Origin: Candidatus Nanohaloarchaea archaeon
GTDB taxonomy: Archaea; Nanohalarchaeota; Nanosalinia; Nanosalinales; Nanosalinaceae
Length of the DNA: 12,981 bases
Assembly: GCA_046539225.1 (NCBI GenBank)
Contig: JBKHHG010000022.1
Span: 1 to 12,981 of the forward strand
Direction of reading: 5' to 3'
Position 1 is the first letter of the stretch. Each line of letters opens with the position of its first letter. A program made the translations under genes and the position numbers. Below, one piece after another: positions 151 through 12,981 of this stretch. The notes under the pieces were generated by a model that ran no database searches, was not told where the DNA came from, and saw only the letters and a program-made list of their open reading frames with translations.

Positions 151-1605
151 ATGAAGAAGTACCAGGAGGCAGGGCTGACACTTCTTGACAACGATATCAC
201 GTTTCAGAACGGCCGGTTGATAGACGAAGAAGTCCTTCTTGATGAGGGCCTGGTTGGGAACAGGAGCTACCGGTCAGCGGAGGATGTGCAGGAAGGAAGA
301 CCCCGCAACCTGATGTATCTGGGTGAGGGCCTTATCACGTTCAACGATACTTCTTTCCCATTCCCGTACAGGCCTGAGTTCTTCCGTGAGGACGGCGAAC
401 TGATGGGGCCGGAGAGGATCCTGCATACGGCCTACGAGACCGTTGAAGAGATAGTTGAAGCTCTGGAGGAGAGAGATGAGAGACTTGAACAGGTCGAGGA
501 GATCTCTGATATCGGTGAATGGAACAGGAAAGGGAACGAGGTAAAGGAAGAGTTCAGGGAAAGGTACGCAGACATCTTCGTTGAAGGATACGAACCCAGG
601 GATGTCTGGTATGATCCGTTCCCGCACCCGGACAACCTGGAAGAAAGTTATGACGCTTTCTGGGATGAAGGTTCTCTTGATTCAAGGCCTGATCTCTCAA
701 GCTCCGAGGAACTGGAACGATTTTTCGAGGAAGGCGGAGAATTCGAAGATTTCGGACTTGGAAGCATGTGGGCCAAGACCGAGGGAGGCATACTGTTTCC
801 GTTTTACCCCGGGATGACCTTGGACAGGTTTGGAAGAAACAGTCTTAACGCATACTCCGATGACGAGGACTACTTCAAAGTCCCCAAGGTCTACCACGCC
901 GTAGGCCTCACTCTGGCGGAAAACGACATCACGTTCAGAGACGGTGTCTACATAACTGATGAGGACCTCAAGGAGGCAGGAGTGATCGAAAGCACCAACT
1001 ACAAGAATGCGTGGGACGTCAAGATGGGAAGGCCTGACACCGTCTTACCTCTTGGAGACGGCAAGGTCACTTTCAACAACACAGGCTTCTCACTTCCTTG
1101 GGCGAAAGACATATTCAGAGAACCGGTGAGATATGGGGATATCACAAGTTACAGCGGAGAACCTGAAACAGTGACAGTGGAACCCGGAGAGGAGATATCC
1201 GAAGATTCAGCTGTTCTGCGAGGCCCGGCAGATATACTCAGAGCCTCACACCAGGCATGGCAGGAAGCCAGAGAGATATCAGAGGAAGAGGCTCTCGAGG
1301 CCTTAACCGCAGCAGGAGTAAACATCGAAAACCTGGATGATGAGCACCACGTTGATCCAGAGGAAATCAATCACAGCTATACCGAGGAGTGGAGAAAAGG
1401 TTCTATAGAAGGCCTCCCGGATTTCTCAGATCCTGAAGCCCTACTGAGAACGATCGACAACGTCACGGAGATCGATGACGTGGTCAGAAAGTATGTAAGA
1501 CACCTAAAAAGCTCCCAGACTTTCAGAGTAGAGGAATCAGAAGATCCTGTCCACAGACAGGAAGATTTAGAAGAAATGGATGAAAGGAGAAGGCTTAGAG
1601 AGTAA
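151..1605 (+). CDS. Hypothetical acidic protein (484 aa) made of two diverged copies of an unrecognised ~190-200 aa domain
   Basis: Long ORF with an in-frame TAA at 142-144 just upstream of the ATG. D/E-rich. Internal similarity AGLTLLDNDITFQNG vs VGLTLAENDITFRDG, and further blocks, at an offset of about 244 aa. No family recognised. Confidence 0.85.
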   Translation: MKKYQEAGLTLLDNDITFQNGRLIDEEVLLDEGLVGNRSYRSAEDVQEGRPRNLMYLGEGLITFNDTSFPFPYRPEFFREDGELMGPERILHTAYETVEEIVEALEERDERLEQVEEISDIGEWNRKGNEVKEEFRERYADIFVEGYEPRDVWYDPFPHPDNLEESYDAFWDEGSLDSRPDLSSSEELERFFEEGGEFEDFGLGSMWAKTEGGILFPFYPGMTLDRFGRNSLNAYSDDEDYFKVPKVYHAVGLTLAENDITFRDGVYITDEDLKEAGVIESTNYKNAWDVKMGRPDTVLPLGDGKVTFNNTGFSLPWAKDIFREPVRYGDITSYSGEPETVTVEPGEEISEDSAVLRGPADILRASHQAWQEAREISEEEALEALTAAGVNIENLDDEHHVDPEEINHSYTEEWRKGSIEGLPDFSDPEALLRTIDNVTEIDDVVRKYVRHLKSSQTFRVEESEDPVHRQEDLEEMDERRRLRE

Positions 1606-1616
1606 GGCCTTACTCT
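1599..1616. repeat. Perfect 18-bp palindrome AGAGTAAGGCCTTACTCT joining two convergent stop codons
   Basis: Read directly. TAA (+) at 1603-1605 and TAA (-) at 1612-1610 flank the central GGCC. Confidence 0.9.
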
Positions 1617-1879
1617 TCCCGGGCTTCTTTCTCTTTTTCGAATATTTCCGGCAGTTTTTCCACGATGTGGTCCACTGCTTTTTCGTCGGTTGGGACGGTG
1701 AATCTCTTGTTGTAGTTGACGGATTCGTCTTCGTTGTAGTACCCTGTCGCGATCTGGATGAAGCTGTTTTCACTGCCGTCGTCCTGAATCGCCTTGTTCC
1801 TGCTTACCTCGATAAACTTTTCTCCCGGAAAGTTTCCATAGTCACGCCGCTCCTTCTCAATAGTCTCAAATTTTACCAT
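1610..1879 (-). CDS. Small archaeal protein (~89 aa), possibly PC4/PUR-like single-stranded nucleic-acid-binding fold
   Basis: ORF track gives 1610..1900. The ATG at 1879 (MVKFETIEK) is preferred because a TATA-like TATAAG lies about 25-30 nt upstream. Beta-strand pattern KFIEVSR / SFIQIATGYY / KRFTVP followed by a C-terminal helix. The fold assignment is inference. Confidence 0.65.
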   Translation of the reverse strand: MVKFETIEKERRDYGNFPGEKFIEVSRNKAIQDDGSENSFIQIATGYYNEDESVNYNKRFTVPTDEKAVDHIVEKLPEIFEKEKEAREE

Positions 1880-1915
1880 AGTAAAATTTGGTCGAAGCAT
1901 ATCTTATAGATATGC
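1867..1915. promoter_or_regulatory. Two inverted repeats covering the probable start codon and TATA box of the 1610-1879 gene
   Basis: CAAATTTTAC-cata-GTAAAATTTG (1867-1890) and GCATATCT-tat-AGATATGC (1897-1915). The repeats are seen directly; the regulatory role is inferred. Confidence 0.5.
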
Positions 1916-1971
1916 GGGTCTCGAATTCTACCATGATTAATCACGTAGAAGTTTGGTGGAGTTTAATTTAA

Positions 1972-1996
1972 GCAGCTTCCCCTTTTGAGAAGCTGC
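1972..1996 (-). terminator. Hairpin downstream of the HxlR gene, possible terminator or RNA-stabilising stem
   Basis: GCAGCTTC-9 nt-GAAGCTGC, followed on the minus strand by AT-rich TTAAATTAAA. Confidence 0.35.
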
Positions 1997-2032
1997 GAGT
2001 CTCGAGTCTTGAACTGGAGAGGCCTGAAGGGT

Positions 2033-2341
2033 TTACCGGGTTTCAAGCCATTTTTCTGCCCAGGCGTTGATTTCTTTGAATACCGGTTTCAGGGAGAGGC
2101 CTTTCTCTGTCAGTGAGTAGTAGGTTGCGATCGGGTTGCCGTTGCCTTCCCGTTTTTCCACGAGGCCGTCTTCTTGAAGGTCTTTCAGGGTTCTTGAAAG
2201 GGTTCTTGAGGAGGCCTCGGTGGATCTCTTGAGTTGGTTGAATCTTTTTTCTCCGGCGGCGAGGTCGTTAAGGATTATCAGCTTCCATTTTGAGCCTATC
2301 ATGTCGAATGATTCCACGATGGAGCATATTCCGTCTGTCAT
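2033..2341 (-). CDS. HxlR-family winged helix-turn-helix transcriptional regulator
   Basis: N-terminal Cys then IGSKWKLIIL, RFNQL, SRTLSRTLKDLQEDGLVEKR, YSLTEKG, C-terminal W: the typical HxlR pattern. Confidence 0.92.
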   Translation of the reverse strand: MTDGICSIVESFDMIGSKWKLIILNDLAAGEKRFNQLKRSTEASSRTLSRTLKDLQEDGLVEKREGNGNPIATYYSLTEKGLSLKPVFKEINAWAEKWLETR

Positions 2342-2443
2342 GGAGGATTTTTGAGGCCTGAACCTTTAAACAGGTTGTGTTTTTGAACCTGGTGTGGTTA
2401 TACAACCTTTAATTTATTTATTCTGTGCCGGGAATACTGGGTT

Positions 2444-2857
2444 ATGTCTTTTATCCGGGCTGTAACGTTGACGGTTATCCTGAGCTTTGTGTTAGTGGCC
2501 TCGGCCTTTGGGACGTTTGTCTATCTTTTATCAGGTTATCCAAGCCCTGAAGTCGATAACTTTCGCGTGAACTCGACTGATACAGGAGACCGGCTGATAG
2601 CTGATGTAGAGGCCTCTGTCAGAAATATCGGTGGAGAGGGAGAAGTCAGAGTCGAGGTAAGATCGCTGGATGAGCAGGACAGGGTGATCGACTCCCGTTC
2701 GCAGACAGCTTTCATGGCTTACAATGAGACCCGAGTGTTCAACGAGAGCTTTAACGCTGAGGAAGCGGATGATATAGGTCTTGCTGTGTTCGCGCCTGAA
2801 AGGCCTGACCTGATTAGGGATGAGTCCGAGATTGTTGAAAGGATTCCTATGCCTTGA
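2444..2857 (+). CDS. Membrane-anchored or exported hypothetical protein with a probable beta-sandwich domain
   Basis: N-terminal hydrophobic helix (aa ~6-30) followed by an acidic, beta-rich region (VRNIGGEGEVRVEVR). Confidence 0.75.
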   Translation: MSFIRAVTLTVILSFVLVASAFGTFVYLLSGYPSPEVDNFRVNSTDTGDRLIADVEASVRNIGGEGEVRVEVRSLDEQDRVIDSRSQTAFMAYNETRVFNESFNAEEADDIGLAVFAPERPDLIRDESEIVERIPMP

Positions 2858-2920
2858 AGGTTTCAGGCCACCGGGAAGGATTTAACTCTGTCTTTCAAAT
2901 TATAGGCTGGAGGGGTTTTC

Positions 2921-3931
2921 TTGGAGAACACTGTAATCGGAGACGCCAGGGTTTTGACAGCGGATTATCTCCCCAACAGAATGGTTCATCGGGACAGTGA
3001 AAGAGAGGCGATCGCCGCCAACCTGAGGCCTATACTTGAGGACGAGCCGCCGATCGACATGCTGATTTACGGGCCTCCAGGAACTGGAAAGACAGCGATG
3101 GCAGAATACGTTGTAAACGAACTGGAGAAACATTCTCCCGAGGTCCAGTCCGGTTTCGTCGACGGTTTCGGCCAGCCATCCCGGTTCGAGGTCTACTACA
3201 AGCTTTTACGGGATATGAACGAGTTTATAACCCGTGGAGGCACTTCGACAGAAGAGCTTGTCGACAAGTTCGAGCAAAAGGCCCGCAACAGTCCGATGGT
3301 GGTGGTGCTGGATGAAGCAGATCAGATAAAGGATGAAAACGTTCTATACGATCTTTCCCGTTTCCAGAACGCTGCAATAATTTTGATAGCGAACAGGCCT
3401 GACGTATTCGTGGATATAGACGACAGAATACGCTCATCTTTCTCCAGTCTGGAGGAGATAAGGTTCAAGGCCTACACGGATTCCCAGCTGTTTGATATAC
3501 TTGATGACCGGAGGAAATACGGTTTGAGAGAGGATGCGGCGAGTGACTCGCTTCTGAAGCTTATATCTTCGAAGTCGAACGGCGATGCCCGGGTTGCGAT
3601 ATCGACGTTGAGAAAATCGGCTCAAAAAACCGAGAAAAAAGGCCTCGAGCAGATTCCGCGTGAGTTTGTCGAGGAAAGTTTTTCGGACGCGGTGGAGGAG
3701 GATCGATCCGTCTCGCTTCAGAAACTGAATGAACATCAGAGAGAGCTTTACAGCATCCTGAAAGAGGAGGAGAGCCTGGGCTCCGGGGGGCTATTTGAGA
3801 GGTACCGGGATAGGGTTGAGGACGGGCCTACGGACAGGACTCTGCGGCGTTACATGAAGAAGATGGAGAGTTACGGCCTTGTAGAGTCCAGAGGCTCGAC
3901 AAGGGACAGGGAGTACCTTTTGAAGGGTTAG
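2921..3931 (+). CDS. cdc6: Cdc6/Orc1-family AAA+ ATPase (short 336-aa paralog)
   Basis: DARVLTADYLPNRMVHRDSE N-terminus, Walker A GPPGTGKT, Walker B VVVLDEAD, sensor-1 IANR, FKAY, sensor-2 GDARVAI, C-terminal winged helix. TTG start preceded by GGAGG at 2909-2913. Confidence 0.93.
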   Translation: MENTVIGDARVLTADYLPNRMVHRDSEREAIAANLRPILEDEPPIDMLIYGPPGTGKTAMAEYVVNELEKHSPEVQSGFVDGFGQPSRFEVYYKLLRDMNEFITRGGTSTEELVDKFEQKARNSPMVVVLDEADQIKDENVLYDLSRFQNAAIILIANRPDVFVDIDDRIRSSFSSLEEIRFKAYTDSQLFDILDDRRKYGLREDAASDSLLKLISSKSNGDARVAISTLRKSAQKTEKKGLEQIPREFVEESFSDAVEEDRSVSLQKLNEHQRELYSILKEEESLGSGGLFERYRDRVEDGPTDRTLRRYMKKMESYGLVESRGSTRDREYLLKG

Positions 3932-3974
3932 GCCTTGCAGGAAATCTTTAATAGAGAGACAAACAAGTTTACAT

Positions 3975-4475
3975 ATGGATTTCGAGGTCGAAAACCGGAC
4001 CCTGCTGACTTTCTGGGGATTCTCCGTTCTTGTGGGCTGGGTCGTATCCTACTATCTCAACAGTTTTTTCCAGCCGGTTTCCATGATAGCGTTCTGGACT
4101 ATCTTGATGTCCGTACCTATGATCGCAGCCATCAAATGGATGGGGCAGCAGTCCAGCGATACCCTCCCGCTTCCATGGGTTCTGACGACAGGCCTCGCAC
4201 TGGTGCTTGGATTTGCTGTGGTCGAAGGACATATTCATGTCCCGGAGATAGAGAGTTACGCAGTCTTCTGGTTTTTCCTACCGGCTCTGGCGTTCTCCGC
4301 CACAACATACTACACCAAGGGATTCCTCACCCATCTCTACACCAGTGCATCCCTCGCAAACTTTATGGTGGCGGCCCTGCTGCTTTTCCAGCCTAACGTG
4401 ATGCAGCAGCACTATATACTTGCAGCTGTGTTCCAAGCCTTCCCCCTGCTCTACCACGCATACTACGAATTCTAA
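3975..4475 (+). CDS. Small integral membrane protein of unknown function (~5-6 TM segments)
   Basis: 166-aa ORF of consecutive hydrophobic segments. Fits between cdc6 and the next promoter without overlap. Confidence 0.82.
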   Translation: MDFEVENRTLLTFWGFSVLVGWVVSYYLNSFFQPVSMIAFWTILMSVPMIAAIKWMGQQSSDTLPLPWVLTTGLALVLGFAVVEGHIHVPEIESYAVFWFFLPALAFSATTYYTKGFLTHLYTSASLANFMVAALLLFQPNVMQQHYILAAVFQAFPLLYHAYYEF

Positions 4476-4509
4476 AGATAATCCGGACATCCGGAAACCC
4501 GCGAATCGG

Positions 4510-4517
4510 TTTAAATA
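4510..4517 (+). promoter_or_regulatory. Archaeal TATA box (TTTAAATA) upstream of the PolB2 cassette
   Basis: Matches the TTTAWATA consensus, is intergenic and lies about 23-30 nt before the first in-frame TTG of the cassette. Confidence 0.6.
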
Positions 4518-4539
4518 GGCCTCGCCGGTAAACAAGTTC

Positions 4540-5175
4540 TTGAAAAGCTCCCGGAGGCCTAACCCAGGGGGGGAGGGGTTGCCTATTTCTCAAAGAGTCA
4601 AAAGTATCCACACACTGAAGACAGTAGAAGGCTGGAACCTGGTCAAGACAGATACAGCGGCTGCCTTCCCGGCACTGATCAAGTATCTGGCATCAAACCA
4701 CGACAAGATACTCTGGATCGACTCATCCAACCAGGCCTCCACACATTTCCTCGAGTCAAGGCCTCAAGCCCTGGAAAAACTTTACATCGCAAGGGCTTTC
4801 ACCGCGCTGCAGCACCACCAGCTCTGCAGAAACACAGAGGGATTCGACCTCCTGATCTTGCCGGAGATCGACAGGCTCTACACCGAAGACTCGATGCGCA
4901 GGAAAGAGGCAGTAGAGCTCTTCGAAGACGCGGTTGAAGGCCTCGAGGGGAAGATACTGTACTCGGTCTCCGGAGAGATAGAAGACTGGGAAAAGAACGA
5001 AAACGTTATAGAAGTTGAACAGACGGGTCAAGGCCTGAAGTTCTCGCAGAAAGACCGGCAGACACGAGCATATTCCGACAGAACCGGTGTCCAGACGACC
5101 GTACCGCTTTACAGGGAGGTGAAGACTCAATGGGAAGAACCAATCAAACCTACCGAAACCGGCTGGAGAAACTGA
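4540..5175 (+). CDS. Degenerate RecA/RadA-like protein of the PolB2 cassette; start uncertain (TTG 4540 or TTG 4579)
   Basis: ILWIDSSN, LEKLYIARAFTALQHHQL and DLLILPEIDRLY match RadA-fold core strands. No GxxxxGK(T/S) Walker A. Sits in the first position of the known three-gene PolB2 arrangement. Confidence 0.8.
   Translation: MKSSRRPNPGGEGLPISQRVKSIHTLKTVEGWNLVKTDTAAAFPALIKYLASNHDKILWIDSSNQASTHFLESRPQALEKLYIARAFTALQHHQLCRNTEGFDLLILPEIDRLYTEDSMRRKEAVELFEDAVEGLEGKILYSVSGEIEDWEKNENVIEVEQTGQGLKFSQKDRQTRAYSDRTGVQTTVPLYREVKTQWEEPIKPTETGWRN
5115..5122 (+). promoter_or_regulatory. Shine-Dalgarno GGAGGTGA for the 5130 gene
   Basis: Perfect archaeal SD consensus 7 nt upstream of ATG 5130. Confidence 0.8.
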
Positions 5176-5402
5176 AGGAAAGCTTCAAACCCTTCAGACA
5201 GGCCCTGAGAAGAGAGGACAGGAAGCACTTGGACGCGCTCTGGGAGAAGGCCTTCTACCATGCATCCGCCTCAAGCTACATGAACCCGAGAAACCCGGCT
5301 GAAACCGCTTTGATCTCGATCCAGGTCGAACAGGAGAAAGAGATCCACAGACTGAAACAGAGAATGGGCAAACTGGAAGAACAGATGGAATGTTCAAGGT
5401 AG
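5130..5402 (+). CDS. Small alpha-helical PolB2-associated protein (arCOG07300-like)
   Basis: MGRTNQTYR...FRQALRRED...D.LWEKA..HA.A is the pattern I recognise in the small gene upstream of PolB2. It overlaps both neighbours and has a strong SD. Confidence 0.85.
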   Translation: MGRTNQTYRNRLEKLKESFKPFRQALRREDRKHLDALWEKAFYHASASSYMNPRNPAETALISIQVEQEKEIHRLKQRMGKLEEQMECSR

Positions 5403-7384
5403 ACTTTCAGGGAGAGAAAGCCGTTGAATGGAGCAGAAACGGCGAACTAAAACGAAGAGAGAAGGTTTACAGGCCTAAACTCTATATAAAAGCCGGGAAA
5501 GAGTTGCTGAGGAGGATCCGGGCCGAAACCGCCTCGAAAACTTGGGCTTCAAGCTTTGAAGAGTGGCGTACTTCGCCTGGAAAAAGGCCTGAAAAAGTCC
5601 TGAGGCTTGACCTGAAAAGACAGGAGGACTTCAATTCTTTCCGGGATTTTTTACTTAGAAAGTATCCAAGGCCTGAAATCAGGTTTTTCCATGCCGGTTT
5701 AAGCCCGCAGTTCAAGTACTGTATAGAACAAGACAGGAGCCCCGGCATTGAAGCCGGGCTGGATTCGCTGAGGCTTGAACTTTCAAGACCCCGGATCGCC
5801 CAGGCCTCGCTGAAAGGCCTGAAAATCAACGGGGGAAAACACCGGTCGGAGCCTCAGGCCTTGAAAGCCCTGGAAGAAGAGTTCAGCGGCGAAGGACCTG
5901 ATGTCTTGAGAATAAACAGGTCTCAGGTTTTATCTTTGATTGATGAGAAAACATTTTTCTCGTTGGGTCGAGACTCGGGAATGAAAAAACTGGCGGGAGA
6001 GAACACCGTCACGTCTTATGGAAGGAAGATGCATTCTCCGTCGCGGTACAGCGTCTCCGGACGCGCTGTGATCGATGAATCATCCAGCTTCATGCTTTCA
6101 GAGGCGGGGATGGAAGGCCTCTATGACCTGGTGGAGCGAACATGGAAGCCTTTGCAGGAAGTAGCATGGGCAAGTATCGGGAATATCCTGACAGCGATAG
6201 AAATCCGCCGAGCATATGACAACAATGTCTTGACGCCCTGGAAGAACTGGACTCCGGAAGAGCCGAAAAAAGCAAGTACAATGAGGAAAGCTGATCGCGG
6301 AGGCTTCATATTCAGTCCGATGCCCGGGGTCTATGAAGATGTGCATGAACTGGATTTTGCCTCGCTTTTCCCGAACATAATGGTGAGAAAAAATATTTCC
6401 CCCGAGACGGTTAACTGCAGCTGCTGCAACAACTCTCGAGTACCTGAACTTGACTACTCTATATGCGAGAAACAGATAGGCTTTATACCCCATGTTTTAG
6501 GGCCTATAATCCGTGATCGATCCCGGTACAAGCAAAAAGACACGGATTACAGCGGGAAGGCCTCATCAGCATTAAAATGGATCTTGGTCTCCTGCTTCGG
6601 CTACATGGGACATGCGCACGCATCCTACGGCGCTATTGAATGCCACCAGGCGATCCAGGCCTTCGACAGGAAGATAATGGTGGAAACCAAGGACATGCTG
6701 GAGGATGAAGGCCTCGAGATCAAGCACGGTATCATTGACAGTATCTGGGCCTCCGGCTCAAACGTGGAAAAGGCCTGTGAAAAAGTCTCGGAGGAGATAG
6801 GAATCGAACTGGAGCACGAGCACAGCTTTGACTGGATAGCCTTCGTCCCGAGAAAAAACTCGAACATTTCAACGTTGAACCGTTACTTTGGCAAAACCGT
6901 GGAAGGCGAAACCGTAACCGCTGGAATAGAGATGAGGCAGTCCTCCACACCTGACATAGTAAAGAACTGTCAGAGCGAAATGATAGAGAAAATCCACGAA
7001 GACAGGGAAGAAGCCCTGAAAATCCTGGAAAAATATATTTCCAGGGTTAGAAACGGAGAAGTCGACTTTGAGAATCTTGTAATCGAAAAAAAGATCAGCC
7101 AGAACCCAGAGGCCTATAAATCCGTTAACAAAAGCGCAGAAGCCGCGAAAAGAATGAAGCGGAAAGGCATAGATGTTAAAGCCGGTCAAAAATTAAGATA
7201 CGTTGTCAGGGACTCAGCTTCAAGGCCTCGAGTCCTGCTCGACTTTGAAGAAATAGACAGATACGATAAAGATTTCTACGTTGAGCGGCTTGAAAATGCG
7301 GCGAAATCAGTTCTCAAGCCTTTCGGGTCTGCGCATCGTTTTGAGGCCGCTGAGCCCTCTATTTCTGAATGGTTATCTGAATAA
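5390..7384 (+). CDS. polB2: Family B DNA polymerase, PolB2 group (proofreading-deficient, altered catalytic motifs)
   Basis: RKADRGGFIFSP, motif A DFASLFPNIM, SPETVNCSCC, motif B KWILVSCFGYMG, motif C HGIIDSIW, LNRYFG, GIEMRQ. No intact exonuclease motifs recognised. Confidence 0.93.
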   Translation: MFKVDFQGEKAVEWSRNGELKRREKVYRPKLYIKAGKELLRRIRAETASKTWASSFEEWRTSPGKRPEKVLRLDLKRQEDFNSFRDFLLRKYPRPEIRFFHAGLSPQFKYCIEQDRSPGIEAGLDSLRLELSRPRIAQASLKGLKINGGKHRSEPQALKALEEEFSGEGPDVLRINRSQVLSLIDEKTFFSLGRDSGMKKLAGENTVTSYGRKMHSPSRYSVSGRAVIDESSSFMLSEAGMEGLYDLVERTWKPLQEVAWASIGNILTAIEIRRAYDNNVLTPWKNWTPEEPKKASTMRKADRGGFIFSPMPGVYEDVHELDFASLFPNIMVRKNISPETVNCSCCNNSRVPELDYSICEKQIGFIPHVLGPIIRDRSRYKQKDTDYSGKASSALKWILVSCFGYMGHAHASYGAIECHQAIQAFDRKIMVETKDMLEDEGLEIKHGIIDSIWASGSNVEKACEKVSEEIGIELEHEHSFDWIAFVPRKNSNISTLNRYFGKTVEGETVTAGIEMRQSSTPDIVKNCQSEMIEKIHEDREEALKILEKYISRVRNGEVDFENLVIEKKISQNPEAYKSVNKSAEAAKRMKRKGIDVKAGQKLRYVVRDSASRPRVLLDFEEIDRYDKDFYVERLENAAKSVLKPFGSAHRFEAAEPSISEWLSE

Positions 7385-7401
7385 TTAAATAGAGAAGGAA
7401 G

Positions 7402-8148
7402 TTACAGGTCTTTAGCCCATTCGTAGCCTTCGTCTTCCAGTTTTTCAGCAAGCTCCGGGCCTCCGCTTTCTGCGATTTCTCCATCGATCATTACGTGTAC
7501 TCTGTCAGGCTCAACGTAGTCAAGTATCCGCTGGTAATGCGTGACCATCAGGAAGCCGCGGTCTTCTTCCGCCAGATTGTTGATGCCGTCGGCCACGACC
7601 TTCAATGCGTCTATGTCAAGGCCTGAATCGATTTCATCCAGGACAGCGTACTTCGGCTGTAGCACGGCGAGCTGCAGGATTTCGTTCCTCTTTTTTTCTC
7701 CTCCTGAGAATCCCTCGTTCAAATATCTGCGGGCGTACTCTTCGTCCATGTCAAGCATGTTGAGCGCTTCTTTTACTCTGTCTCGGAACTCCTCCTGTTT
7801 AAGCGGTTCCTCGCCTTCTGCCTCTCTACTTGCGTTCAAGGCCTCTCTAAGGAACTCCGCCACCGAGATCCCTGAAATCTCTGCAGGGTACTGGAATCCG
7901 AGGAAGAGGCCTTTCCTGGCTCTTTCATCGGTCTCGTCTCCTGTCATGTCTTCCCCGTCGATCAGGATTTTTCCGGTGTCTACAGAGTACTCCGGGTTTC
8001 CCATCAGGGCCTTGCACAGCGTTGATTTTCCTGAGCCGTTGGGCCCCATGATGGCGTGGATTTCGCCTTTCTCTACTTCAAGCGAGACTCCTTTAACGAT
8101 TTTTTCTTCAGGTACTGATACCCTAAGATCTTCTATCTTCAAAGTCAT
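7402..8148 (-). CDS. sufC: Fe-S cluster assembly ABC ATPase SufC
   Basis: HAIMGPNGSGKST, FLGFQYPAEISG, RYLNEGFSGGEKKRNEILQ, LDEIDSGLDIDAL, VTHYQRILDY. Confidence 0.97.
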   Translation of the reverse strand: MTLKIEDLRVSVPEEKIVKGVSLEVEKGEIHAIMGPNGSGKSTLCKALMGNPEYSVDTGKILIDGEDMTGDETDERARKGLFLGFQYPAEISGISVAEFLREALNASREAEGEEPLKQEEFRDRVKEALNMLDMDEEYARRYLNEGFSGGEKKRNEILQLAVLQPKYAVLDEIDSGLDIDALKVVADGINNLAEEDRGFLMVTHYQRILDYVEPDRVHVMIDGEIAESGGPELAEKLEDEGYEWAKDL

Positions 8149-8246
8149 GTAAAATGTACGGGCACAAACTTTCTTAATTAGAATGCTTTACCAGCGATCA
8201 AGTCCCTGCTCCAGAACAGGCCTCGACTTTAGGGAGTTAAAGACAG

Positions 8247-8768
8247 CTATCTATTTACGAGCCGGATCGCATCCTCCGCAGCGTCGACGATCTTCTCCGA
8301 CTCCATCTTCTCCAGTGAGGCCTCCATCTGGCTTGGGGTCCAGAACCTTGCTTCTTCTGCGTCGCTTCCCGCTTCTACCTCCCCTTCAACGTGTTCATAC
8401 GAGATGGTGTAGGCGTTTCCAACGACGTACTTGTCAGGATGCTCCAGATGGATCGTCGCCACCAGCTCCAGTTTCTCTGGGTCGGCTGTCAGGCCTGCCT
8501 CCTCCTCAAGTTCCCGGACCGCGCCGTGCTCAGGCTTTTCATCGTATTCGAGATAGCCGGCTGGGAAGCTCCAGAGGCCTTTGTTCGGTGTCCCGCCTCT
8601 CTTGATCAGCAGGACCTCTCCACCTTTGATTACGAAGACTCCTGCGACCGGCACCGAGTTCCTGTAGACAAACTTTCCGCAGCTTGTGCAGAAGTATCTC
8701 TCCATACCTTCCTCCCGCTTTTTCACGAGTTCGGTGCCGCATCTGTAACAGTAGTTAAGCTGTTTCAT
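8247..8768 (-). CDS. Nudix hydrolase with N-terminal zinc ribbon
   Basis: CYRCG...CTSCG, and Nudix box GYLEYDEKPEHGAVRELEEEAG. Overlaps the upstream sufU-like gene by 14 nt. Confidence 0.93.
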   Translation of the reverse strand: MKQLNYCYRCGTELVKKREEGMERYFCTSCGKFVYRNSVPVAGVFVIKGGEVLLIKRGGTPNKGLWSFPAGYLEYDEKPEHGAVRELEEEAGLTADPEKLELVATIHLEHPDKYVVGNAYTISYEHVEGEVEAGSDAEEARFWTPSQMEASLEKMESEKIVDAAEDAIRLVNR

Positions 8769-9117
8769 TCTTCACACCTTTCTGCAAAGTTTTCAGGCTT
8801 AGCAACGCGCATTTCATTCTCATCGGCGAAACCTCGACACCCAACTTTTCCAGCATCCAGTCCCTGTCCAGGCCTTTCACTTCCTCTAAGTCCAGGCCTT
8901 TCACTTCTTCTGTCAGGATGCTTGTGGATGCGGTGCAGATAGCGCAGGCCTCGGTCTCGTGCAAGATCTCCGAGATCTTCCCTTCTTCAAGATCTGCGTA
9001 AATAGTCAGGCTGTCTCCACAGCTCGGGTTCTCGCCTTCCCCGACTATATCCGCGTCTTCGATGCTCCCTGCGTTCCACGGGTTCTTGTAGAGATCGAGT
9101 ATCTCATCCCTGTACAT
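8755..9117 (-). CDS. sufU: SufU/IscU (NifU N-terminal) family Fe-S scaffold or sulfur-transfer protein
   Basis: MYRDEILDLYKNP, NPSCGD, ACAICTAS, RMKCAL (three conserved Cys). The ATG at 9117 is preceded by AAGGTG; the ORF track extends to 9126. Confidence 0.9.
   Translation of the reverse strand: MYRDEILDLYKNPWNAGSIEDADIVGEGENPSCGDSLTIYADLEEGKISEILHETEACAICTASTSILTEEVKGLDLEEVKGLDRDWMLEKLGVEVSPMRMKCALLSLKTLQKGVKNETA
8866..8907. repeat. 18-bp direct repeat GTCCAGGCCTTTCACTTC x2 with a 24-bp period, inside sufU
   Basis: Copies at 8866-8883 and 8890-8907. They encode EVKGLD twice. Confidence 0.85.
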
Positions 9118-9162
9118 CAAGAACACCTTCTTTTTCCTGAGAGAAGGTTTTCAGTTTTCGTC

Positions 9163-10323
9163 TCACCGGAACACCTCCACGGCTTCCTCCACAGCTTCGA
9201 TAAAGGCCTCGACTTCTTCCCCGGTATTATAGATATAGGGGGACATTCTTGTCGTTCCTGACGCAATTTTTTCCTCCATCAATGGCTGGGCGCAGTGGTG
9301 GCCCGCTCTAACCGCAACACCTTTCTGGCCGAGAACCTCGGCTATATCATGCGGGTGAGCATTTTTGACCGTGAAAGACGTGACCACAGCATCCTCTGGA
9401 GATACCATGTCTACACCTTCTATTTTTTCAAGGCCTTTTCTCGCATTGTTACAAAGTTTTCGATCGTGGCGAAAGACTTTATCCGTGTCGAACTGTTCAA
9501 GGTAGTCAAGAGCTGCTTTCAAACCCGCGGCTCCTGCGACGTTTGGAGTCCCTGCTTCAAATCTCTGAGGTGGGTCCTCGTAACGCGTCCCTTTCTTTGT
9601 CACGGATTTAACCATCCCGCCGCCGACCTGGTAAGGCCTCAAATCTTCCAGGTATTCTTTCCTGCCGTATAGAACTCCGATGCCTGTAGGACCCATCATT
9701 TTGTGCCCGGAGAAAGCCAAGAAGTCCACGTCAAGCTCTTTCACATCAATACTTTTTCTCGGGGCTGACTGGGCCGCATCCATGAAAACCTTCGCACCGT
9801 TCTCGTGGGCGATCTCCACCACTTCCTCGACAGGGTTTTCAACTCCGTGAACATTCGTAACCTGGGAAAAAGCAACCATCGAGGCCTCCTCAACCCTGGA
9901 TTCAAGGTCTTCCAGGTCTATCCTGCCGTTCTCGGTCTCTACGAACTCCAGTTCGTTATTTTCTCGCCAAGGAAGAAGGTTTGAATGATGCGCGGTCTCG
10001 GGCACCAAAACCTTTCCCTCCAGCTCGATCCTTGAAGCCAAAAGATTGACAGCTTCCGTCGTATTCCTTACAAACACTGCTTCCTTTCTTTCAGCGCCGA
10101 TGAACTCCGCTGCTTTTCTCCGTGAAGCTTCAAAGGCCTGCGTCGCATCGTTCGCCAATGGGTAGAGGCCTCTACCGATGTTCGCATTTTTTTCCCGGTA
10201 AAAGTTTTCTACAGCTTCGATTACGGCTTCAGGTTTCTGGCTGGTGGCGGCGTTGTCCAGATAGACGAGTTCAGGCCTTTCACTGAAGATTGGAAAGTCT
10301 TTCCTGATTTTCTCCGGGTTCAT
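9163..10323 (-). CDS. sufS: Group II cysteine desulfurase SufS
   Basis: IRKDFPIF, YLDNAATSQKP, DAAQS, FSGHKMMGPTGIG (PLP lysine), FEAGTPN, VRAGHHCAQP (catalytic Cys). Start MNPEKIR at 10323 is preferred over 10368. Confidence 0.95.
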   Translation of the reverse strand: MNPEKIRKDFPIFSERPELVYLDNAATSQKPEAVIEAVENFYREKNANIGRGLYPLANDATQAFEASRRKAAEFIGAERKEAVFVRNTTEAVNLLASRIELEGKVLVPETAHHSNLLPWRENNELEFVETENGRIDLEDLESRVEEASMVAFSQVTNVHGVENPVEEVVEIAHENGAKVFMDAAQSAPRKSIDVKELDVDFLAFSGHKMMGPTGIGVLYGRKEYLEDLRPYQVGGGMVKSVTKKGTRYEDPPQRFEAGTPNVAGAAGLKAALDYLEQFDTDKVFRHDRKLCNNARKGLEKIEGVDMVSPEDAVVTSFTVKNAHPHDIAEVLGQKGVAVRAGHHCAQPLMEEKIASGTTRMSPYIYNTGEEVEAFIEAVEEAVEVFR

Positions 10324-10374
10324 GCATACTTTATGGGGGGTCAATTCTTTTTTAGTTGGAGCTATCAAGAATAG

Positions 10375-10387
10375 AAGAGAAAAAAGG
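10375..10387 (-). terminator. Oligo-T/pyrimidine tract after the cupin stop, candidate archaeal terminator
   Basis: The minus strand reads CCTTTTTTCTCTT immediately after the TAA at 10392-10390. Confidence 0.4.
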
Positions 10388-10389
10388 TT

Positions 10390-10635
10390 TTAAGGCGCTC
10401 CAACAAGCACCAGCTTCGAGGCCTCATGCGTTCTCAGAGTCCTGCTGTCTCCCGGAGAAATCCTGAGTGCGTCTCCTTCACTCATCTCAACAGAATCTCC
10501 TTCAATCTCCACCTCCGCTTCGCCTTCAACCAAAAAGTAGATCTCTTCCTGTTCTTCCTCGGCGTGGTCATGCTCCATTCCTTCAAACCCGGCTTCAGTC
10601 TCCAGAACCGTGAAGCCCTGTTTCTCCGCGTTTAA
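10390..10635 (-). pseudogene. Cupin-domain gene, apparently 5'-truncated
   Basis: HDH...QEEIYFLVEGEA...GDALRISPG cupin motifs. The frame continues upstream of ATG 10578 as LNAEKQGFTVLETEAGFEG with no ATG/GTG/TTG before an in-frame TGA at 10668-10666. Confidence 0.6.
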
Positions 10636-10660
10636 AGAGGAAATGTTAAATCCCTGAGGC

Positions 10661-12181
10661 CTACTTCAGACTATAGAGGAGACTGAAAAACCTGTCGCTG
10701 ATCTGCTCCGTAATAGTCTCCCCGAACTCGCTGGTTTCTTCAGCGACCTCTCCTTGAATCTTTCCCTCCTCCGTGATGGTCTGCCTCCAGGTTCCTCGCT
10801 GGTACCAGAGATATGCGAGGGAAGCTCCCGCAACGTTTGATACGAAGAACGCGATCCAGACTCCTTTCGTCCCGATCTCTAATGCACCAAAGTACCCCAC
10901 CGGAAGCCGGATAAGGCCTAAAGTCGCGATAGAGATTACACCAGCGGTCAAAGTTTTTCCAGCGCCTCTGAAGCTTCCATTATAGCTTCTAAGGACTCCT
11001 ATGAATCCGAAGCTTAAGGATACGTAGCGCAGGAACTCTGCCGAAACTGCCGCAATCTCAGGGCTTTTTGTGAAGACGGAAGAGATCGGCCTGGCGAAGA
11101 TAAACGTGAAGACTCCAAGGCCTGTCAGTATAAGGAAAGTCCACTTTGCTCCGAACCTGGCAGTCTCCGCAGCTCGATCATAGTTCCCTGCACCTAAATT
11201 CTGGCCAGTCATGGACTCAACTCCTCTTCCTACCGCTGCAGCTGGCAGGAAGATCATGGAGAAGATTCTTACCGCGATGCCGTAGCCTGAGACGACTGTT
11301 CCAGCAAAGATTGTGCCAACGACCGCTACCAGCAGGTTAACTGATACAGATCTCCCTGTCTGCTCCGCTGAAGCAGGAACTCCGATCGAAAGCATCTTCT
11401 TGAAGAAGCTGAAATCTGGTTTCATCTGTACCAGCGATATCTCTATCCCTCTTCTACCTGTGAAGAGTATCCAGATTCCTGCAAGCAGTGAAAGCGCTCT
11501 CGCGAAGACAGTGGCGATCGCAGCTCCCTGGACTCCCATCTCGGGAATAATCCACCAGCCGAAGATGAACAACGGATCAATTATTATGTTCAAGACTACT
11601 GTACCGAACATCAGTATCATAGGAGTCACTGTATCGCCGTAACCCCGCATAAGCGACTGGAAAACCAGGAAACCGAACATCGAGAACAGGCCTATCGATA
11701 TGACTTCAAGATAACTCGCCGCAGCCGCCGCTATATTCCCGGATGCTCCAAGAAGCGGTACAAGATCGCTGACAAACATTAAACCTGCTGCCCCTATCAC
11801 AACAGAGGCTAAAGCACTGAAGGCAACTGTCTGGGAAGCAGCATAATTCCTCCTCTTTTTGTTGCCTGATCCTTCGTTTTGCGCAACAAGAACGCTGCCA
11901 GCAACCGCCAAACCCATTCCCAGCGAGATCAGAAAGAATACAAGCGGGAAAGCATAGGTAACCGCCTCGAGAGCTGCGTCGCTGTACTGGCCAAGCCAGA
12001 AAGTATCAGCAAGGTTGTACGTAGTCTGAAGAAGATTGATAACGATGACAGGCAGCGAAAGATAGAACAGGTTTTTCCCTACAGGGCCGTTCAACAGGTC
12101 AAGCTCCTCTTTCGACTTGAACTGGCGCTTAAACCATTCAAAAACATTGGACATATTTCTCCTGATTTTTGATAGAACCAT
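10661..12181 (-). CDS. MATE-family (DinF-like) efflux transporter
   Basis: LLNGPVGKNLFYLSLP, YNLADTFWLG, RGYGDTVTPM, NIIIDPLFIFG, MGVQGAAIAT, GQNLGAG; about 12 hydrophobic segments. Confidence 0.95.
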   Translation of the reverse strand: MVLSKIRRNMSNVFEWFKRQFKSKEELDLLNGPVGKNLFYLSLPVIVINLLQTTYNLADTFWLGQYSDAALEAVTYAFPLVFFLISLGMGLAVAGSVLVAQNEGSGNKKRRNYAASQTVAFSALASVVIGAAGLMFVSDLVPLLGASGNIAAAAASYLEVISIGLFSMFGFLVFQSLMRGYGDTVTPMILMFGTVVLNIIIDPLFIFGWWIIPEMGVQGAAIATVFARALSLLAGIWILFTGRRGIEISLVQMKPDFSFFKKMLSIGVPASAEQTGRSVSVNLLVAVVGTIFAGTVVSGYGIAVRIFSMIFLPAAAVGRGVESMTGQNLGAGNYDRAAETARFGAKWTFLILTGLGVFTFIFARPISSVFTKSPEIAAVSAEFLRYVSLSFGFIGVLRSYNGSFRGAGKTLTAGVISIATLGLIRLPVGYFGALEIGTKGVWIAFFVSNVAGASLAYLWYQRGTWRQTITEEGKIQGEVAEETSEFGETITEQISDRFFSLLYSLK

Positions 12182-12225
12182 GAAGAAAATTATTTAGGAA
12201 ATTCTTTTAATGCCAAAACACGTAT

Positions 12226-12981
12226 CTACTTTTGATCCAATTTCCGCTGAACTTCTTCCCTGATCGATTCCTTGACCCTTGGAACCTCGATCTCACGCAT
12301 CACCGGCTCAAAGAAACCTTTCACAACCAATCTCTCCGCTTCATCTTCATTCAGGCCTCTTGACTCAAGGTAGTGCTGTTTCTCTTCCTCAACCGTTCCA
12401 GCAGCCGCTGCATGCGAAGCTTCGACGTTAGGATCTTCTATCATAAGCTTCGGCGACGCATCGCTTTCTGCTTTGTCGGAAAGCATCAGCGTTTCCTGAT
12501 CCTGAAAACTGGACGTGTCTACAGCCTTCTCCTCGACTTTCTGGAGGCCTTCATACAGGCTTCTCGCCTTATTATCTGCTACGCTTCTCGAATCCATGTC
12601 ACACTTCGTGTTGTCGCCTATATGCCTGACATGGAGAGAAATGTCGTGATGCTGTTCTCTGGTAGGATACCAGACGCCTGTCATCTCCGTCTCCGAGCTA
12701 TCTCCTTTCAAGACAGTTTCAATCTTTGTCCTGTTCAGATCACCCTTGAAAATACCGTTCAGCCAGTTAATCGAACCGTACTTATCCATTATCGCTTTTC
12801 TCCGAGAATAGGAAAACCCACCTGGTTTTTCAACTGCTCCGTACTCTACCGAGGCATTTTCTCCGACGTATATCTCGGTGAAAGAAGTGTTGAACTCTTC
12901 GCTCTCCGTCTCTTCTGTTACCGTTACGTTCGAGTTTCTCTCCGCGTCGATTATCAGGTGGCTTATCACAGGATTTTTCTC
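12226..12981 (-). CDS. sufD: SufD (SufBD family) Fe-S assembly protein, C-terminal part; gene starts beyond the window
   Basis: The frame is open to the window edge. Beta-helix region, then ESDASPKLMIEDPNVEASHAAAAG...HYLESRGLNEDEAERLVVKGFF. The ASHA motif favours SufD over SufB (EHEA). Confidence 0.88.
   Translation of the reverse strand, partial: EKNPVISHLIIDAERNSNVTVTEETESEEFNTSFTEIYVGENASVEYGAVEKPGGFSYSRRKAIMDKYGSINWLNGIFKGDLNRTKIETVLKGDSSETEMTGVWYPTREQHHDISLHVRHIGDNTKCDMDSRSVADNKARSLYEGLQKVEEKAVDTSSFQDQETLMLSDKAESDASPKLMIEDPNVEASHAAAAGTVEEEKQHYLESRGLNEDEAERLVVKGFFEPVMREIEVPRVKESIREEVQRKLDQK

Follow-up and report, generated by a model that had tools for sequence, protein, structure and literature searches.

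Why does a stretch of nanohaloarchaeal DNA carry the same six-base palindrome, AGGCCT, dozens of times over, and what keeps it there? The stretch considered here (the window) is the whole 12,981-nucleotide contig JBKHHG010000022.1 of a Candidatus Nanohaloarchaea archaeon (assembly GCA_046539225.1), designated C22 in its source genome, G000, which comprises 606,781 bp in 38 contigs and is 82% complete. A preliminary description of the window had reported 63 AGGCCT and about 33 other GGCC contexts, with the hexamer in all three codon phases, on both strands and in non-coding DNA, and had proposed a system resembling HIP1, the highly iterated palindrome (HIP) of cyanobacteria. Our recount agrees with it: AGGCCT occurs 63 times at the same positions (4.85 per kb), 33 of the 96 GGCC lie in other contexts, and 56 sites fall within open reading frames (ORFs) on both strands and in three phases (those at 370, 903 and 1298 are phased as described in the ORF at 151-1605), with four sites intergenic and three straddling gene ends. 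None of 200 dinucleotide shuffles of the window reached this number (mean 3.89, maximum 10), and 58 of the 63 sites have a purine on the 5' side and/or a pyrimidine on the 3' side, a preference for RAGGCCTY. We conclude that AGGCCT is a real, strong and apparently unpublished archaeal HIP; no report of its excess in archaea was found in a literature search that most subscription journals and supplementary tables lay outside.

The excess is genome-wide, as the preliminary description had supposed, and persists against Markov and synonymous nulls alike. G000 contains 2850 AGGCCT on all 38 contigs (about 4.7 per kb, or one per ~200 bases), which is 20 times the order-0 and 16 times the order-1 Markov expectation; the ratio of observed to expected counts (O/E) for CGATCG there is 0.77. 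With coding and non-coding DNA divided by ORF calls made in this analysis, the coding part holds 2532 copies against a mean of 432 in ten within-gene synonymous shuffles, and the non-coding part holds 306 in 57 kb (5.4 per kb). Where the encoded amino acids permit the hexamer, it is present at 451 of 533 Arg-Pro opportunities and at 916 of 1223 and 1165 of 1471 opportunities in the other two phases. It had been argued from the window that codon-pair bias is insufficient, and this holds: a conditional model, in which synonymous codon choice is fitted with terms for codons and for codon junctions, agrees with the shuffles and stands in for a strict dicodon-preserving shuffle. The caution that sites might mark assembly joints is likewise answered, as the ORFs are intact, the window is reproduced by contigs of two public runs (both from one study, one possibly the source sample), and the one joint listed lies away from any site.

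The related genomes that the preliminary description had suggested consulting share the excess in part. Across a comparison set of 41 genomes, in which the relatives measure 0.5-1.3 Mb and G010 and G005 are single contigs, eight are motif-rich (G000, G001, G002, G004, G005, G010, G022 and, at an intermediate level, G003), and in the remaining 33 AGGCCT stands at no more than 1.6 times its reversed control. In a quick RpoA' tree of 30 genomes, not a careful search, all eight fall within one 12-row clade (SH-like approximate likelihood ratio test, SH-aLRT, 100) together with the non-rich G007, G017, G023 and G024, the last of which served as the motif-poor in-clade control. The rRNA of G010 is archaeal. 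Together with acidic proteins, the small genomes of the relatives, source runs from mats and hypersaline settings, and an RNA polymerase whose closest match bearing a family name is in Ca. Asbonarchaeaceae (62%), a family of this group, it points to a place in Nanohaloarchaeota. Among 80 other archaeal loci, 79 had an O/E of at most 2.06 and one reached 3.6 on two counts; 10 of 80 metagenomic loci chosen by their AddA-like gene were motif-rich, two of these being identical, and an earlier metagenome scan gave none. No equally strong alternative motif was found in 3-20-kb samples of 19 relatives. G017, in which AGGCCT is not enriched, has the sole positive GGWCC weight among the 19 fitted (+1.06 +- 0.12), and its AGGACCT stands at 1.7 times the control over the whole genome (0.2-0.45 times in four others); this mild GGWCC excess is possibly an alternate motif. 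In a viral scan of at least 121 stretches, the five densest records were locally or mildly rich and gave no sign of nanohaloarchaeal hosts. On the IMG/VR contigs L183, L229, L255 and L217, stretches low in G+C (GC) and without long ORFs carry 6-13 AGGCCT in 3-4 kb, mostly as WAGGCCTW, the richness being local in the two records counted.

The preference has a definite shape. In the conditional model the weight of AGGCCT is +4.26 in G000, +4.20 in G010 and +3.97 in G022 (of which the first 300 kb were used for fits), against -0.72 in G024. One-base variants inside GGCC receive 0.1-0.5 in rich genomes and 0.06-0.34 in the control, and the hexamer is favoured over each one-base variant by log-odds of about 4, AGGCCC/GGGCCT excepted, for which the weight is +1.2 in G000, +1.8 in G010 and +3.0 in G022; the last genome is relaxed, with every AGGCCN favoured. 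The 8-mer weights of G010 are additive over half-sites, from 4.98 (AAGGCCTT) down to 2.26 (CAGGCCTA), with a purine preferred 5' and a pyrimidine 3' and little contribution from positions farther out. There is no strand difference (sense-strand AGGCCC 1.70, GGGCCT 1.71 in G010), and over eight segments of G010, in which the origin was not located, the asymmetric variants have no clear replichore polarity. The preference thus amounts to a symmetric matrix, RAGGCCTY, that is strict in its GGCC core and graded around it. This pattern suggests a reader of double-stranded DNA with two-fold symmetry, or one acting on both strands.

Sites also influence one another. With a neighbouring site no more than 15 bp away, occupancy is 0.51-0.56, and with one at 100-300 bp it is about 0.89 (G000 and G010); G022, with fewer sites, has no clear trend. 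By regression a neighbour costs -1.45 to -1.88 log-odds within 15 bp and close to nothing beyond 100 bp, in G010 the penalty has faded at about 100 bp, in G000 for the most part already at 50 bp. Close pairs such as 5802/5815 in the window are accordingly under-represented across the genome, and hairpin avoidance could contribute to the shortest-range repulsion. With respect to genes, sites are depleted at the distance of the TATA box and at gene starts, peak right after stop codons, and are sparse in low-GC islands, in cas genes, in part of the 23S rRNA gene (G010) and in a few presumably highly expressed genes; otherwise occupancy is level over conservation classes (0.78-0.90). At long range, the counts in G010 have a 74.6-kb period that none of 400 block permutations reached (2 of 400 once islands were masked), with like phase in both genome halves and no counterpart for six control words; in the occupancy residuals of this one genome the period is not significant (296 of 400), and GC itself has some power at that period. 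Two loci of G010 deserve separate mention. At 798.7-808.8 kb (L102/L103) a CRISPR array of 22 repeats adjoins nearly motif-free cas genes, and 2 of 21 spacers in G010 contain AGGCCT. The giant-protein locus at 416116-450031 (8573 amino acids) also occurs in the first 300 kb of G022 and was not found in G024 or in the G000 assembly.

What kind of force could have produced this pattern? Four-fold sites between G000 and G010 are saturated (0.367), and at identical residues 448 of 547 sites are shared, approximately the occupancy level; therefore, site positions look interchangeable. The preliminary description had proposed ortholog alignments as the way to separate selection from mutational drive. 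Sites are indeed conserved above background, as four-fold positions in sites are conserved in 54 of 64 cases compared with 0.451 outside (L384 versus G010); however, because the level of conservation equals opportunity occupancy, conservation does not prove site-specific selection. Proteins are affected too: at differences from G024 the motif-compatible residue is favoured 2.4- to 4-fold, with Arg favoured over Lys before Pro by 37:9 (495:413 elsewhere) and Leu favoured after Gly by 191:82 (1116:1154 elsewhere). Of 10 sites that G002 has in its genes for RNA polymerase, 9 are gone in the sister genome G003, all of them lost synonymously through changes of mixed kind, which indicates that the force can lapse in a sister lineage. 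Among the strain differences listed (40 of 102), none makes or breaks a site, and they are too few to inform. Exact stationary solutions on 2697 contexts of G010 discriminate among classes of force. Transition-only models, whether of boost or of protection and up to 1000-fold, yield an occupancy of 0.27-0.33 and empty AAGCCT and AGACCT (at most 0.08), whereas the observed occupancy is 0.79 and these neighbours are enriched 2.1 and 2.8 times; a uniform advantage of S=4 for the intact site predicts 0.84. The force thus works against both transitions and transversions away from the intact site, behaviour to be expected of selection or of biased conversion.

These properties recall HIP1 (GCGATCGC), likewise reported as a dispersed short palindrome in all frames and spacers, conserved above background, tolerant of single deviations at its ends only and lost in some lineages (Xu et al. 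2018, PMC5861425; PMC4390886). Long-range periods of 10-90 kb belong to the description of HIPs as well; the 74.6-kb period in the counts of G010 would be a possible counterpart. AGGCCT is not HIP1 proper, as the motif is another and the host is an archaeon. It is denser, at 4.7 per kb against the 0.2-2.73 per kb given for HIP1 (hexamer and octamer, respectively), and lower in fold-enrichment (16-20 against 16-317 times; PMC4390886, PMC5861425). Moreover, unlike in most HIP1 cases, no cognate methyltransferase (MTase) was found; HIPs have been tied to MTases, yet four HIP1-rich strains are described as having no CGATCG MTase (Elhai 2015, PMC4390886). CAGGCCTG, the alternate HIP of Synechococcus sp. 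PCC 6312, contains the AGGCCT core and is reported from that one genome at 0.37 per kb with an O/E of 14.7 (PMC5861425, PMC13756078); it is among the least favoured 8-mers of G010 (2.27 against 4.98 for AAGGCCTT).

As a tentative explanation, somewhat more apt to be wrong than right, we propose that AGGCCT (at its best RAGGCCTY) is the putative site of a methylation-independent reader and that, during repair or recombination, alleles with the site intact have the advantage. A DNA-reading protein encoded on the chromosome would bind RAGGCCTY without methylation, binding would let the copy whose site is intact prevail against every variant when copies of the DNA are repaired or recombined, and the mark would protect its own DNA from resection. 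That a protein reads AGGCCT, and that its advantage is a conversion-type drive (a self-mark against resection) and not organismal selection, we infer. The proposal fits because free positions are filled, returns diminish within about 100 bp, positions are interchangeable and the force lapses in a sister lineage. In its most specific form, which we consider rather unlikely, AGGCCT would be the first archaeal Chi-like self-mark, methylation-free and recognised by a helicase-nuclease resembling AddAB or by some other resection factor; a recent account states that no Chi has been identified in archaea (10.64898/2026.05.08.723854). Like the Chi sites of RecBCD and AddAB, AGGCCT is over-represented and lower in acquired DNA (PMC8022716). 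An AddA-like UvrD helicase beside a PD-(D/E)XK protein is present (the latter upstream, G000 C2:28886-34077), and the helicase gene is near full length in all eight rich genomes. Of the 17 non-rich members of the family, four carry it near full length, G013 has it in pieces, G018 and G024 have truncated versions, and in ten it was not found; the non-rich genomes where it was not found include G023 and G006. The helicase matches below NCBIfam cut-offs and its partner carries PDDEXK_1 only. This pair is the only lead to the reader; it is a weak one, found after several tries, and we consider its identification as the reader doubtful.

Several observations weigh against a reader-driven advantage of this kind. 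AGGCCT is palindromic, occurs once per 0.2 kb and is unpolarised by strand, unlike Chi, which is usually polarised and occurs about once per 5 kb in Escherichia coli (PMC8022716). The non-rich G007, G014, G016 and G017 carry the AddAB-like pair near full length, and seven non-rich genomes of other families have it too. In 27 assessable metagenomic loci, those with an intact nuclease are rich in 8 of 23 cases and non-rich in 15 of 23, and the truncated ones are rich in 0 of 4; on the AddA tree the rich contigs are interspersed with non-rich ones, no column of the AddA or AddB alignments splits rich from non-rich lineages, and the AddB-like profile had no match among solved structures. The 2.1- to 2.8-fold enrichment of transition neighbours is not predicted by the uniform-advantage model, and because binding-site selection predicts the same equilibrium as drive, the stationary solutions cannot tell the two apart. 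Finally, 12 candidate genes were tested and none tracks the trait, so that no reader gene was identified. The polymerase of the window is near full length in five non-rich family members and was not found in G022 or G003, and a minor pilin is present in 12 of the 17 non-rich genomes of the family and was not found in the rich G005. The trait was not tracked by a 355-amino-acid unknown protein, DUF2582 or a 70-amino-acid helix-turn-helix protein (41 genomes each), nor by the short Cdc6, DnaG, PF01949, a SWIM-like protein, unknown proteins of 289 and 91 amino acids or a ribbon-helix-helix-nucleotidyltransferase (five genomes each). NucS is uninformative as a candidate because it is near-universal (36 of 41). 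Subtracting G024 from the proteins common to G010 and G000 left 45, part of which were examined, a procedure blind to readers missing from G000 or kept in G024. As side observations on the AddAB-like genes, those of G024 (L144:8661-14031) are parted by two small toxin-antitoxin-like ORFs, its AddA is without the C-terminal ~140 residues (G018, G013 and several metagenomic loci have comparable truncations), and the match in G022 (C1:485483-488161) lies within an open frame of 1778 amino acids, about twice the usual length and a possible fusion.

It is also possible, though on balance unlikely, that ordinary selection keeps the sites because they are bound by a dimeric protein that organises the nucleoid or chromosome, as Xu et al. 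(2018) proposed for HIP1. The symmetric additive matrix, repulsion on the scale of a footprint, the excess conservation of four-fold positions in sites (54 of 64 against 0.451) and the 74.6-kb period of the G010 counts are all as such a site would have it. However, that period is not significant in the occupancy residuals, is one at which GC has some power too, and comes from one genome; moreover, close relatives do without the motif and no DNA-binding candidate tracks the trait. A protein-binding site and a recombination or uptake signal, the two further options of the preliminary description, are not told apart by these data.

For an origin in methylation-directed strand choice during mismatch repair, the model of Elhai (2015) and one of the routes named in the preliminary description, the chances appear slim. 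It would explain the strict GGCC core with deviations at outer bases only, as Elhai reports for HIP1, and saturated repair tracts would yield neighbour repulsion; NucS is available in 36 of 41 genomes, and it has been proposed that MTases were transferred between a nanohaloarchaeon and the host it lives with (PMC11001535). The GGCC MTase would nevertheless have to be an unrecognised or host-supplied one, as no cognate enzyme was found in G000 or in the closed G010 and G005. In these three neither a C5 MTase nor a match to the N4/N6 MTase profile PF01555 was found (profile PF02086 was not searched), and three MTase-like query sequences had no match in G000 or G010. C5 MTases (PF00145) occur in 1 of 8 rich as against 7 of 17 non-rich family genomes; G022 has one N4/N6 MTase match above the cut-off. 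The sole MTase-like match in G010 is a PglX/type IIG-like adenine MTase gene (810 amino acids), a longer relative of which is present in the motif-poor G024. By Pfam, no DNA MTase was found in 400 proteins of G010 that G024 lacks or matches much more weakly, a scan that left out about 700 proteins shared with G024, 18 G010-specific ones (at locus borders, above 3000 or below 60 amino acids) and seven short ones. Where the clade does have a GGCC system, the outcome is the opposite: in G024 (L002:1456-3375) an MTase that matches M.HaeIII over its full length, including the recognition region (E 1.8e-95), adjoins an NgoPII-family nuclease, and GGCC is depleted. G024 depletes ACGT as well, G020 has a C5 MTase of similar score, and G020, G021 and G023 also look GGCC-poor in samples. 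As for published nanohaloarchaeal methylomes, the main texts report only GDGCHC, in one strain, and do not mention AGGCCT or GGCC (PMC10266531, PMC11001535).

Similarly improbable is that AGGCCT is a DNA uptake sequence, raised by biased import of marked DNA and recombination. Like the uptake sequences of Neisseria and Pasteurellaceae, it amasses in coding DNA, shifts peptides and is absent from recent acquisitions (PMC2817400); for HIP1, abundance reportedly rises and falls with genes for pili and competence (PMC13756078). There are several pilus operons. The uptake sequences of those bacteria are 9-10-mers and not palindromic. DprA was not found here (0 of 5 genomes tested), the 400 G010 proteins scanned gave no ComEC or ComEA match (shared proteins were not scanned), and the minor pilin has the distribution given above.

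Creation of the motif by Vsr- or deamination-type bias (T:G to C:G) is strongly disfavoured and very improbable; the preliminary description had advised looking for Vsr-like nucleases. Depletion of CTAG is a pattern of Vsr-type systems, and CTAG stands at 0.06 of its order-1 expectation in G000; the degree of this depletion differs from relative to relative, with no correspondence to the AGGCCT trait. A transition-only bias caps occupancy at about 0.3 and would empty the very neighbours that are enriched, and neighbour repulsion is unexpected under it. Last, the reading of the excess as an artefact or as codon-pair or peptide bias is refuted: the dipeptides RP, GL and AS are over-represented (1.4-1.65 times), but sites lie in three phases, on both strands and in non-coding DNA, with ORFs unbroken and no joints at sites, and recur in the eight genomes and ten metagenomic loci.

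The sites and genes of the window are collected in Table 1. The family B polymerase that ends the three-gene cassette is one that we take to be of PolB2 type, and the cassette is patchily distributed within the family. The ORF at 151-1605 encodes an acidic protein of 484 amino acids with an internal repeat (residues ~7-90 and 254-340), for which there was no Pfam match and no counterpart in G010 or G024.

Table 1. AGGCCT sites and genes of the 12,981-nucleotide window
Feature	Position	Strand	Basis or remark
Dispersed AGGCCT palindromes, n=63	370..12550		Motif count and shuffles
Intergenic AGGCCT	2020..2025; likewise 2354, 4517, 8218		Position relative to ORFs
AGGCCT across gene end	1605..1610; likewise 3930, 10657		Position relative to ORFs
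Tight site cluster in PolB gene	5802..5861 (5802, 5815, 5856)		Motif positions
Short Orc1/Cdc6 paralog	2921..3931	+	Candidate reader; trait not tracked
Three-gene cassette, last gene family B DNA polymerase	4540..7384	+	Candidate cause; trait not tracked
Context genes with sites: SufC, Nudix, SufU, SufS, MATE transporter, SufD-like	7402..12969	-	

In summary, the purpose of HIP1 has been open for about 30 years, and AGGCCT offers an independent, archaeal case in genomes of 1 Mb with no cognate MTase found. Its matrix, strength (log-odds of about 4) and range (about 100 bp) define what a reader must do, and sister lineages include some with the force on, one where it is relaxed (G022), one where it is decaying (G003) and others where it is off. 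Its strength suffices to alter proteins, which could bias phylogeny and binning in this group. If AGGCCT is indeed Chi-like, the mark would be denser than any reported HIP1 and would spread itself by gene conversion, and a symbiont that shares the cytoplasm of its host would spare and recombine its own DNA while degrading DNA that is unmarked.

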